64,000 nucleotides of DNA from positions 1-64,000 of the forward strand of contig CAXHJY010000578.1 of NCBI GenBank assembly GCA_964016885.1, given 5' to 3'. Source of the DNA: Eledone cirrhosa (lineage: Eukaryota). Each line of letters starts with the position of its first letter. Position 1 is the stretch's first letter. Below are positions 17,570-55,117 of the stretch, piece by piece. The notes beneath the pieces are model-generated. The model ran no database searches. It saw only the letters and a program-made list of their open reading frames with translations, and was not told the origin of the DNA. A program made the translations under genes and the position numbers.

Positions 17570-19880
17570 TCACCTACTACAGTATTACCACCTACAACAC
17601 TACCACCTACTACACCACCTACTACAGTATTACCACCTACAACACTACCACCTACTACACCACCTACTACAGTATTACCACCTACAACACCACCACCTAC
17701 TACACCACCTACTACAGTATTACCACCTACAACACTACCACCACCTACTACAGTATTACCACCTACAACACTACCACCTACTACACCACCTACTACAGTA
17801 TTACCACCTACAACACCACCACCTACTACACCACCTACTACAGTATTACCACCTACAACACCACCACCAACTACACCACCTACTACAGTATTACCACCAC
17901 CACCACCACCTACAACACCACCACCTACTACACCACCTACTACAGTATTACCACCTACAACACCACCACCTACTACACCACCTACTACAGTATTACCACC
18001 TACAACACCAGCACCTACAACACCACCTACTACAGTATTACCACCTACAACACCACCACCTACAACACCACCTACTACAGTATTACCACCTACAACACCA
18101 CCACCTACAACACCACCACCTACACCACCACCACCTACAACACCACCACCAACTACAATACCACCACCTACAACACCACCACCTACACCACCACCACCTA
18201 CAACACCACCACCAACTACAATACCACCACCTACAACACCACCACCTACAACACCATCTACTACAGTATTACCACCTACAATACCACCACCTACAACACC
18301 ACCACCTACTACACCACCTACTACAGCATCACCACCACCTACAACACCACCACCACCACCACCTACAACACCACCACCAACTACACCACCACCAACTACA
18401 CCACCACTACAGCATCACCACCTACTACAGCATCACCACCTACAACACCACCACCACCTACAACACCACCACCACCACCACCACCAACTACACCACCACT
18501 ACAGCATCACCACCTACAACACCACCACCACCTATAACACCACCACCACCAACTACACCACCACTACAGCATCACCACCTACAACACCACCACCACCACC
18601 ACCACCAACTACACCACCACTACAGCATCACCACCTACAACACCACCACCACCACCACCACCAACTACACCACCACTACAGCATCACCACCTACAACACC
18701 ACCACCACCACCACCACCAACTACACCACCACTACAGCATCACCACCTACAACACCACCACCACCACCACCACCAACTACACCACCACTACAGCATCACC
18801 ACCTACAACACCACCACCACCATGATCACAATTACCAACAGCTACAGCATCACCACGACCATCTTCAACAAAAACACCATTACCTCCTATATTACCACCA
18901 CCACCACTACCTACACTAATATCACCTACTACACCAACACCACAACTACCTCCAGTACCATCATCACCTACACCACCACCACTACCTACTACACCACCAC
19001 AATCACCATCGCCATCACCCATTACAGCATCACCACCTATATCTACACCACCACCTACAACACAACCATCGCCATCACCCCGCCACCAGCTTCACCACAT
19101 GCACCACTGCCTACATCTCCACCAACACCACCTACATCACCACCATCACCACCGCCACCAGCTTCACCACATGCACCACTACCTACATCTCCACCAACAC
19201 CACCCACATCACCACCACCACCACCATCACCACCGCCACCAGCTTCACCACATGCACCACTACCTACATCTCCACCAACACCACCCACATCACCACCATC
19301 ACCACCACCACCACCTACATCTCCACCAACACCACCCACATCACCACCACCACCACCATCACCACCACCACCACCTACATCTCCACCAACACCACCTACA
19401 TCACCACCACCACCATCACCACCGCCACCAGCTTCACCACATGCACCACTACCTACATCTCCACCAACACCACCCACATCACCACCACCACCACCATCAC
19501 CACCGCCACCAGCTTCACCACATGCACCACTACCTACATCTCCACCAACACCACCACATCACCACCACCACCACCATCACCACCACCACCACCTACATCT
19601 CCACCAACACCACCTACATCACCACCACCACCATCACCACCGCCACCAGCTTCACCACATGCACCACTACCTACATCTCCACCAACACCACCCACATCAC
19701 CACCACCACCACCACCACCACCGCCACCAGCTTCACCACATGCACCACTACCTACATCTCCACCAACACCACCCACATCACCACCACCACCACCATCACC
19801 ACCGCCACCAGCTTCACCACATGCACCACTACCTACATCTCCACCAACACCACCCACATCACCATCACCACCACCACCGT
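17570..19880. repeat. (CCA/ACC)-derived compound minisatellite with higher-order units
   Basis: Three successive unit types (cctactacagtatta, ctacagcatcacc, gcttcaccacatgcacc); plus strand very G-poor. Confidence 0.92.
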
Positions 19881-22095: not shown

Positions 22096-22654
22096 CACAC
22101 CTTCACGCATGAACACACTCATACACACACACATACACACACATACACACACGCATACACACACACACACAATCATATCCAATTGGTCATTTGCTGCTAT
22201 GGAAACAACCATACGCCATGTTACCCTATATAGCGGGGAAGTCGTGCGGAAATCGATGATTTCATTGTCGCCGATATTAATTAGTTTTTAATAAGATTTA
22301 CCTGGTGATATCAACAAATATTCTACACTTCTTTATTTTCTCTGAATAGTGTACCTGTTTGTTCTTGTGTTCTGCTCCGATTGTTTCCTGAGTCACCGTA
22401 AACAAATAAAACAACAACAAAAAAAACAACAAAAAAAACGAGCAGTTACATACGTTGCCTCGATTAATATTTAAATATTTGGTATGTAAAGACTATATAA
22501 GGCGGCGAAATCGCATTATCATTAGGACGCCAGATTAAATGTCTCGGTTTTTATTCCATCACACTACATCCTGTATTTATAAACTGCTCGATAAATAAAG
22601 TGACAGTGAAAGACTTGGGTTGATCCCCACCTCTCTCTCTTTGTATGTATATAA

Positions 22655-22715
<61 letters not shown>

Positions 22716-22843
22716 AAAGTTCTATTTAAAATTGTTGGGATACAACAAGTAAATATTTTATAACTGAAATAAAGCACTCAACAAGTTTTTGGAGTAGATA
22801 TACGATATTAAATAAATGGAAACTATATTTATAAAACCATATT

Positions 22844-22908
22844 TATTTCATTATACATATTTCAGGGATACCAAATTAAAATATGGCATGCCTTCATCAG
22901 ACAAAATA
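22844..22908 (-). ncRNA. Type I minimal hammerhead ribozyme (P1)
   Basis: Reverse complement of 23070-23134. Confidence 0.8.
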
Positions 22909-23069
22909 CAATATATAAACAGTTTTATAAATAATTTTGACGTACCCTATTAGATGCGACCATTATTTTTTGGAAGCTGTCTGTGTTTTCTATCCAGACA
23001 GCTTCCAAAAAATAATGGTCGCATCTAATAGGGTACGTCAAAATTATTTATAAAACTATTTATATATTG

Positions 23070-23134
23070 TATTTTGTCTGATGAAGGCATGCCATATTTT
23101 AATTTGGTATCCCTGAAATATGTATAATGAAATA
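23070..23134 (+). ncRNA. Type I minimal hammerhead ribozyme (P1)
   Basis: tattttgt CTGATGA agg c atgcca-loop-tggtat c cct GAAA tatgtATA atgaaata. Confidence 0.82.
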
Positions 23135-23166
23135 AATATGGTTTTATAAATATAGTTTCCATTTAT

Positions 23167-23212
<46 letters not shown>

Positions 23213-23219
<7 letters not shown>

Positions 23220-23643
23220 TATGTATACGTACATACATATATGTATACAGATGTACAGTAGTATGTATATATATATATATATACATACATGCACACATAT
23301 ATATGTACGTATGGATTCACCAAACATTTATTATAATGCTCGGTGTGTTTGTAAACAAACATCCCGAATTAAGCCGTACAGTGTCTAGCAACCACCGTTG
23401 CTCATTTGTTCAACACTGACAAAGGAACGCTGTACTAGTTTCAGTGTTGAACAAATGAGCAACGATGGTTGCTAGACACTGTACGGCTTAATTCGGGATG
23501 TTTGTTTACAAACACACCGAGCATTATAATAAATGTTCGGTGAATCCATACGTACATATATATATGTGTGCATGTATGTATATATATATACATACTACTG
23601 TACGTCTGTATACATATATGTATGTACGTATACATACTTATAT
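23213..23643. repeat. Long palindrome, arms about 205 bp, 21-nt loop
   Basis: Arms 23213-23419 and 23441-23643 with few mismatches. Confidence 0.92.
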
Positions 23644-23709
23644 TTAAGTAACAGCCGTACTAAGAGTGAGAAATGAAATTTCGTTTCATTTTTTCCGTAT
23701 ATATATATA

Positions 23710-24983: not shown

Positions 24984-25038
24984 ACTGCCTGAAGAGGTCA
25001 CAGCCAAAGATGGCTGTCACCGAAATATATATAGCAGT
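24984..25038 (+). ncRNA. Type I minimal hammerhead ribozyme, different family
   Basis: actgc CTGAAGA ggt c acagcca aaga tggctgt c acc GAAA tatatATA gcagt, followed by aataaa. Confidence 0.88.
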
Positions 25039-25989: not shown

Positions 25990-26110
25990 GAGGTTATATT
26001 TAATTTGTTGGGATACATTTTATCTGATGAAAGCGCACCATGGTGGCCCTTGAAATATGTATAATGAAATAAATATGGTTTTATAAATATAGTTTCCATT
26101 TGTTAATATA
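25990..26110. mobile_element. Short P1 element: inverted terminal 27 bp fused to a plus-strand HHR arm
   Basis: aggttatatttaatttgttgggatac (P1 outer end) followed by the opposite-orientation HHR segment. Confidence 0.75.
26017..26070 (+). ncRNA. Type I minimal hammerhead ribozyme (P1), short stem II
   Basis: attttat CTGATGA aagcgcaccatggtggccctt GAAA tatgtATA atgaaat. Confidence 0.78.
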
Positions 26111-26965
26111 TTGTATATATATATCTATAGTTTAATAAATGAACAGAGAGGCAGTACAAATGATATGGTTTTTAGTTTCACGCTTGAGAGTGGGGGGATA
26201 TATATATAGGAAAATAGTTAGGATCCCGACGGATGAGTATCGAGTACTCTGATGCGTTATGGTCCACCTGGTATCTTACCACACTTTCTTTGCTATATAT
26301 ATATATATTTCACTGGAAGAAACCGGCTGAAGAGTGATGGCCTCTGCCCGATTTGAAATGTCCAAAACATGGCATGTGCCATGACGGCGGCCCTATGAAT
26401 CCATCAAGAGTTAATGGCCTTTTCCTTTTTTCTTCTTTCAAAGCTTAAATATCACACCAACAACGTATAATTAGTAAATCCTTTAAGTTTAACGTCTATT
26501 ATAAGATCACTTATCTTCTTGTTTAAACAGACCAAACTACTATAAGATTCATTTAGTTTATATTACTGACCGTCAGTCTAGTAAGCTGTTCCTCAGACAC
26601 ACGCTCACTCTGTTGTTCAAAACTCACACTCAAAAAAATAATAACAACAAACGTTTATGGTGTTTTTAAAGTAGGGAGAAGTAATTGAAAGCGCCTGTCT
26701 TGCTTAATAAGATGGAAATGTGTGCGTGTATGTTTGACTTCTGCCTGTTCCGATGTTGAGTGATTCAGTTGATTCGATCAACGGAATAGCATGCTGGTAA
26801 AATTAACGCGCAAGTGGCTAAGCATTCTACACTCGCGTGCATTGTTAATGTAGTTCTTGGAGAGAGATGTATGTGAGTGAGGGTGTACGCTTATCTGTAT
26901 TTACACATACAGCGCACGTTTAATATACTGTTCCGGTTTTGTATGTCCTTTAACTATCATTAACC

Positions 26966-53741: not shown

Positions 53742-55080
53742 ATTTCAGTTTAGTAGTCATTTACAAATATTAAGCTCTAAGAAAAATACTTCTGAGCATT
53801 ACATTACAATTTAGAAATTAAAAATTAAAAAATATATGATCAACACTACTGTGTTTTTTTTTTTGCAAAATGACAATAATTTTTTAGCCAGATAGAAATA
53901 CCTTAATTCAAGTACATATAGTCCGTCTGTATCGATCTAGAGAATTTTAAATATTAAATCTATACTTACAGACGTAAAATGGCAACTGCCTGGTGCCTAG
54001 ACAAGTTTAAATTTCAAAATTCAAACCTTTTCAGCAGATCGGGTAGAACTTCAAAACATAAACCTGTTTCACAAGGGATGTTATACTAATGAAATAATTA
54101 ATTAATTACGGAACAACTATTTATAAAATAATTATTAGTAGAGTAATCAATTTTCTGTGATCTACGGTAGGCACCCAGAAATTAAAATCACTTCTCCTAA
54201 GACAGTATCTTAAGACTGATCTGTCGCAAGCCTAATACATGTGCTTTTGCACACGACCTTCTCAGCATTCTGGCACATATCCATGGCGCTAGAAATAACA
54301 GCCGTGAATATGTGATTATGAATTCAGCTCGACCGTAGGAGCAGTTAATTTCAGTTTAGTAGTCATTTACAAATATTAAGCTCTAAGAAAAATACTTCTG
54401 AGCATTACATTACAATTTAGAAATTAAAAATTAAAAAATATATGATCAACACTACTGTGTTTTTTTTTTTGCAAAATGACAATAATTTTTTAGCCAGATA
54501 GAAATACCTTAATTCAAGTACATATAGTCCGTCTGTATCGATCTAGAGAATTTTAAATATTAAATCTATACTTACAGACGTAAAATGGCAAATATTTGTA
54601 AATGACTACTAAACTGAAATTAACTGCTCCTACGGTCGAGCTGAATTCATAATCACATATTCACGGCTGTTATTTCTAGCGCCATGGATATGAGCCAGAA
54701 TGCTGAGAAGGTCGTGTGCAAAAGCACATGTATTAGGCTTGCGACAGATCAGTCTTAAGATACTGTCTTAGGAGAAGTGATTTTAATTTCTGGGTGCCTA
54801 CCGTAGATCACAGAAAATTGATTACTCTACTAATAATTATTTTATAAATAGTTGTTCCGTAATTAATTAATTATTTCATTAGTATAACATCCCTTGTGAA
54901 ACAGGTTTATGTTTTGAAGTTCTGCCCGATCTGCTGAAAAGGTTTGAATTTTGAAATTTAAACTTGTCTAGGCACCAGGCAGTTGCCATTTTACGTCTGT
55001 AAGTATAGATTTAATATTTAAAATTCTCTAGATCGATACAGACGGACTATATGTACTTGAATTAAGGTATTTCTATCTGG

Positions 55081-55117
<37 letters not shown>

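Follow-up and report, generated by a model that had tools for sequence, protein, structure and literature searches.

The window analysed here is the whole stretch of 64,000 nt of Eledone cirrhosa DNA presented above (contig CAXHJY010000578.1). It contains a palindrome whose two inverted arms of 179 bp each (22805-22983 and 22995-23173) differ by one mismatch (22920/23058) and enclose a centre of 11 nt (22984-22994). The earlier note had described these arms and the (TA)n on either side of them; the structure is real, and its coordinates and flanks were confirmed. The following features are found at the locus:

22644..22712, no strand: (TA)n target, left flank
22713..22983, minus strand: left pLTR copy with tail, family positions ~+7 to +275
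22713..22800, minus strand: tail of ~88 nt, between the short and the long 3' end
22844..22908, minus strand: type I hammerhead motif, predicted cut after 22852
22984..22989, no strand: junction filler of 6 nt, matching neither arm
22990..23173, plus strand: right pLTR copy with the short end and no tail, family positions +2 to ~+185
23070..23134, plus strand: type I hammerhead motif with a 2-bp stem III and a self-complementary loop, predicted cut after 23126
23174..23218, no strand: (TA)n target, right flank

Compared with a natural full copy, the left pLTR copy is 97.8% identical (271 nt) and the right one 96.9%. The extra sequence beyond the left palindrome arm (22713-22804) is the family tail, whose end is one of the two 3' ends of the family; in full copies, the tail continues into the ORF about 50 nt further on. 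The whole palindrome is predicted to fold as one hairpin (about -290 kcal/mol), and a direct tandem array with a hammerhead per unit is absent at the locus. The adjoining segment (23213-23645) is a 92% palindrome as well. It is formed by a folded-back copy of another dispersed repeat (496 candidates), which is often present as direct and inverted copies and in which neither a hammerhead core nor a source ORF was found in 18 loci.

Each arm carries one hammerhead motif, on opposite strands, with cores that begin at 23078 (plus) and 22900 (minus). The earlier note had placed the cleavage site after an AUA at 23126, and on sequence grounds both the motif and this position (AUA triplet at 23124-23126) hold. 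The type I assignment is based on the conserved core and the covarying stems I and II, together with a stem III of 2 bp. Across 17 related motifs, 94.1% of the cells in stems I and II were paired and 13 of the 19 pairs showed two-sided changes, a level reached in 0 of 500 shuffles, with slid controls at 37-51% paired; since the motifs are mutually related and were selected with a search pattern in which the core is fixed, the control is a generous one. The covariation argues for stems I and II, not for catalysis. Rfam scans returned no hammerhead family and only hairpin-like miRNA matches under the gathering score, and the monomer fold was no more stable than shuffles (z -0.76). Two copies of the stem III segment cofold at -4.2 kcal/mol, and a layout with a tiny self-complementary stem III has been linked to dimeric activity (PMC4209133). 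The AATAAA pointed out in the earlier note is present and overlaps stem I in an AT-rich 5' leader. Its role as a poly(A) signal is unsupported, the copies ending in (TA)n at two fixed sites beyond it. Hammerhead-like cores of other repeat families also occur in the window, at 24989 (plus) and 53527 (minus).

Because the whole element folds as a single hairpin, both ribozymes are predicted to be hidden in a transcript that reads through the locus: each hammerhead would pair with its antisense copy and would thereby be kept from folding as a ribozyme. Copies that start at the predicted cut do not form a hot spot. Among the 304 matches that differ from the native base just before this site, the first 30 were checked and included four (possibly five) true junctions, the remainder being substitutions or short deletions that retain the hammerhead upstream. 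The lack of a hot spot is no test of catalysis, and it agrees with the finding that uncleaved RNA is the main template of the Poseidon PLE (PMC11167929).

The arm has 1415 candidate matches in the 3.0-Gb genome, of which the top 40 were scored and were mostly 97-99% identical. A 34-nt hammerhead pattern gave 652 exact genome matches, and a downstream 42-nt pattern shared with the sister families gave 4257. The search for a PLE ORF upstream of the arm ends, which the earlier note had suggested, was successful: a frame with RT and GIY-YIG lies upstream of the arm in several of the 10 copies that were extended in this direction, and in 18 of 30 loci found via the ORF start, a pLTR ending in the tail leads straight into the ORF. 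Two copies keep open frames (746 and 750 aa) with YRDD and VVY...YVG motifs, and one intact-frame copy (L249) has a hammerhead on either side of the ORF. As in EN+ PLEs, the pLTR comes from a partial tandem and overlaps the 5' leader, the single ORF consists of RT followed by a C-terminal GIY-YIG (by motifs), and an optional tail and an inverted 5'-truncated copy are found. The family protein itself gave no match in Pfam or PDB; one of its 236 homologues scores GIY-YIG at E 3.7e-4, below the cut-off.

The Hydra clade of C-terminal EN+ PLEs, which includes Hydra-1_Obim and Penelope-13_HM (Craig et al. 2021, PMC8557442), is characterized by RW[K/R], DKT, a CxCX5C linker, and CxxC and CxH flanking E and N, and is devoid of CCHH (PMC8557442). 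A CxC motif and an IFD are likewise absent from the clade. The family protein shows RWR in most copies (RSR in L249), DKT at 118-120, C604/606/612 (CxCX5C), C702/705 (CxxC), E708, N720, and C729/H731 (CxH), and CCHH is absent from it. Two further traits of the clade, a hammerhead and insertion into (TA)n, are both present. The arm is the pLTR of a high-copy autonomous PLE, not an independent retrozyme; the source element is of Hydra type as judged by the above motifs, from which the clade placement is taken. Like the published members of the clade, the element combines a single RT-then-GIY-YIG ORF with the clade motifs, a pLTR hammerhead, and (TA)n targets (PMC8557442). Hydra-1_Obim from Octopus bimaculoides has a hammerhead and a (TA)n preference as well (PMC8557442, supplement), but its listed hammerhead sequence differs from the one described here, which therefore belongs to a different family. 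Moreover, the gap between stop codon and pLTR is about 1.35 kb and the element is near 4 kb long, whereas generally <3 kb is given for the clade, and the tail of about 88 nt exceeds the published 30-40 (PMC8557442).

Head-to-head inverted pLTRs with palindromic junctions have been reported before (Arkhipova et al. 2013, PMC3846280), and PLE insertions may comprise an inverted 5'-truncated copy, often with a tail at one end only (PMC8557442). The inverted pLTRs, the one-end tail, the palindromic junctions, and a TCACT motif are thus all shared with published insertions (PMC3846280); in the present case, in contrast to those (PMC3846280, PMC8557442), both copies are reduced to the pLTR. In PLEs, pairs of hammerhead motifs on opposite strands have been reported at distances of 100-700 bp (Cervera and De la Pena 2014, PMC4209133), and Penelope-13_HM has an inverted 5'-truncated copy with hammerheads on both strands (PMC8557442, supplement). 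The ambisense form, of which the earlier note was not aware as a described family in cephalopods, was hence already in print. We are dealing with a new family of a described clade, and inverted solo pLTRs are a known kind of structure.

The 3' ends of the family fall on two fixed sites, 88 nt apart, each leading into (TA)n: among the first 100 copies listed, 44 have exactly the short end, 43 exactly the tail end, and 13 stop elsewhere or a few bases off. In 25 of the 26 pairs held in one locus, a short arm faces a tailed one (p=8e-7), the remaining pair being short and short; this count omits two further close pairs that lie in separate loci. The same combination was read by eye in 9/9 pairs of the sister families, and it is present in 13 of the 15 palindromes at the hot spot (two were unscorable), a set that partly overlaps the 26 pairs. 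The arms differ at 1.4 positions within a pair and at 3.0 between pairs (22 pairs), they agree at one diagnostic site in 22/22 pairs, and the two arms in the window share a variant that is absent from all other pairs. These shared subfamily variants imply that both arms came from one source, unless conversion has homogenized them; gene conversion could be an alternative cause of their likeness.

At the 5' side, 27 of 100 copy starts lie at -1 to +14, two at -56 to -2, 25 at +15 to +85, and 46 further upstream, the 5' ends within one pair not being independent. The A at position +1 belongs to a TCACT motif, which is found at the same place in the sister families despite differing neighbouring sequence and was called Inr-like in previous work (PMC3846280). 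Position +1 is likely the transcription start, as far as can be told from the motif and the distribution of ends. When +1 is intact, it is preceded by the native C in 399 copies and by another base in 83, 44 of which have G. In the first 30 of the loci without the native C, G stands before +1 in 13 of 20 true junctions (15-24% expected) and at 4 of 25 other ends (p=0.002). Replication in the sister families is weak, with an extra G in 22 among 100 copies listed of 507 and in 4 of about 17 independent junctions (~12% expected). In LINE-1, an additional G is the mark of a copied cap (PMC11702581), and by analogy the extra G seen here likely has the same origin. Counts of the short-plus-tail rule, the sharp 5' edge, or the extra G were not found in the available parts of PMC3846280 and PMC8557442.

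We interpret the palindrome as head-to-head 5'-truncated pLTRs, one tailed and one short, of an autonomous PLE with Hydra motifs, which likely entered the (TA)n in a single insertion; we put the probability of this reading at about 0.88. It draws on the family identity of the arms, the two fixed 3' ends, the short-plus-tail pairing, the common source of the arms, and the variety of centres described below. In the mechanism that we envisage, the RT-endonuclease would nick both target strands, after which each nicked 3' end would prime reverse transcription at one of two internal RNA sites (~+187 and ~+275). Both cDNAs would extend to or near the RNA 5' end and be joined by microhomology or filler, each would template the second strand of the other, and the two hammerheads would be passengers in the insertion. 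In vitro, the Poseidon PLE from Anolis carolinensis cuts and extends both strands of the DNA, and reverse transcription begins at two internal sites, one on each side of the tail (Frangieh et al. 2024, PMC11167929). Poseidon belongs to another clade, though, and its hammerhead overlaps the ORF start, whereas the hammerhead of the present family sits in the 5' leader, some 190 nt before the ORF (PMC11167929). No printed account of Penelope twin priming or of a second-strand model since 2022 was found in a literature search of partial coverage that included few subscription papers.

It is possible, if rather unlikely, that the same PLE gave rise to the inversion by self-priming or fold-back of one strand, either on an antisense template (PMC3846280) or from a single cDNA, and that endonuclease resolution left the tail. 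This would explain the common arm source and the short-plus-tail pairing and fits the observation that many fold-back centres are small palindromes; it is also the proposal already published (PMC3846280). With a single fold-back from the tail end, however, the tailed arm should extend further 5' in every case. By eye, the further-5' arm is the tailed one in 6-7 pairs and the short one in nine, and in the window it is likewise the short arm, which suits twin-strand priming at two RNA sites and is not predicted by a single fold-back from the tail end. The accumulation of copy starts at a sense-strand initiator-like motif and the two start sites bracketing the tail in vitro (PMC11167929) also speak against it.

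Far less probable is an independently amplifying, non-autonomous ambisense retrozyme, in which the fold-back would be transcribed, cleave itself, and re-insert as a unit. All 28 pairs of copies within 10 kb of each other among the first 100 of the 652 matches are in head-to-head orientation, which favours the reading as inverted pLTRs. Such a unit might be favoured by the 17 of these pairs that lie within 500 bp, by centres that recur at up to three loci, and by the common junctions in unrelated flanks at the loci L156/L166 and L154/L171. Against this, a pattern search for fold-backs revealed 38 loci folded at the same spot as in the window, with 30 different centres by our own count; the centre in the window occurs at one of these loci only. 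The fold-backs must therefore form anew at insertion and do not represent one amplified non-autonomous family. The same +2/+12 junction is found with the tail on one arm or on the other, so that at least part of the repeated centres can be put down to recurrent microhomology, and some re-copying of fold-backs may take place. In addition, the palindromes belong to different subfamilies, same-strand neighbours were absent among the 28 pairs (first 100 matches), and no more than five of the 30 copies sampled begin at the predicted cut. Metazoan non-LTR retrozymes form direct tandem arrays (Li et al. 2026, 10.64898/2026.07.22.740005), which were not seen here among the 100 matches listed, although a PLE-derived type I hammerhead with a tiny self-complementary stem III is common to both (10.64898/2026.07.22.740005, PMC4209133). 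As part of a coding element, the arm does not amplify as a non-coding unit of its own. The small non-autonomous ribozyme retroelement of the earlier note is thus very unlikely, and the finding that the note had foreseen as fatal to it, an arm that is simply the pLTR of a PLE lacking independent amplification, is largely what was obtained; its claims of a retrotransposon origin and head-to-head integration hold.

An assembly or library fold-back artefact is hardly credible, even though the window lies on a 95.7-kb contig and no read or contig spanning the exact locus was found among the reads and contigs searched, because the arms differ at both ends and by one base with filler between them, the outer ends are the two canonical 3' ends of the family, and the fold lies in the same place at 37 other loci, almost all of them on contigs of several megabases.

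The copy in the window is likely a dead end, and taken by itself the locus is unremarkable debris from an already known class of retrotransposons. The family as a whole bears on the question of how PLEs make tandem and inverted structures, which has been stated as open (PMC8557442). Its hundreds of young copies, with 3' ends at two sharply defined sites, a clear-cut 5' edge, and a short-plus-tail rule that holds almost strictly, deliver predictions that can be tested in vitro.

The earlier note had also suggested that the hairpin might serve as a dsRNA and ADAR substrate. The arms in the window show no A-to-G editing signature, but indirect support comes from a sister pLTR palindrome with an editing-type cluster. 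This sister fold-back occurs at four places on contig C1 (loci L318, L328, L329, and L331; L318:1308-1696 and near 83.20, 147.54, and 181.21 Mb). Compared with an unedited sister copy, it carries 29 A-to-G changes on one strand, which affect 29 of the 82 adenosines of the paired arms but none of the 61 in loop and tail (p=1.4e-8). The 5' neighbours of these sites are U (17), A (11), C (1), and G (0). ADAR has a 5'-neighbour preference that matches this U/A-rich, G-free pattern, and it also prefers a 3' G, a preference not seen at the 29 sites. The fold-back sits downstream of another Hydra-type ORF, inside the 3' region and on the sense strand of that PLE, with which it was copied, and an 81-nt contig from a public run matches its edited arm. 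It represents one ancestral event and the sole case among the 464 distinct arms scanned. The cluster looks like ADAR hyper-edited RNA that was written back to DNA and lends support to the view that such hairpins may be edited when transcribed. Within the limits of the partial literature coverage, with few subscription papers, no printed account of ADAR-edited retrotransposed copies was found. RNA editing may in this way turn into heritable sequence via retrotransposition. We give about even odds to the wider proposal that the fold-backs record the PLE insertion cycle (twin priming, run-off at a capped start with an extra G, and end-joining), that transcribed fold-backs serve as substrates of ADAR in the germ line, and that their hyper-edited forms return to the genome and are spread by other PLEs.

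Related sequences are also found elsewhere in the window. A second head-to-head hammerhead palindrome, of a diverged sister family, lies at 10276-10621, with cores at 10447 (minus) and 10562 (plus) and the tail on the left arm, and single sister-family pLTR fragments with hammerhead cores are located at 26010-26121 (plus) and 61722-61912 (minus). A broken Hydra-type PLE ORF extends over 2438-4177 on the minus strand (34-59% identity by tblastn). Apart from these elements, the window contains a perfect inverted repeat of 498 nt with a 213-nt spacer (53880-55088) and a long ACC-rich tandem array with a strong strand skew (17587-19878), which could encode a Thr/Pro-rich protein.
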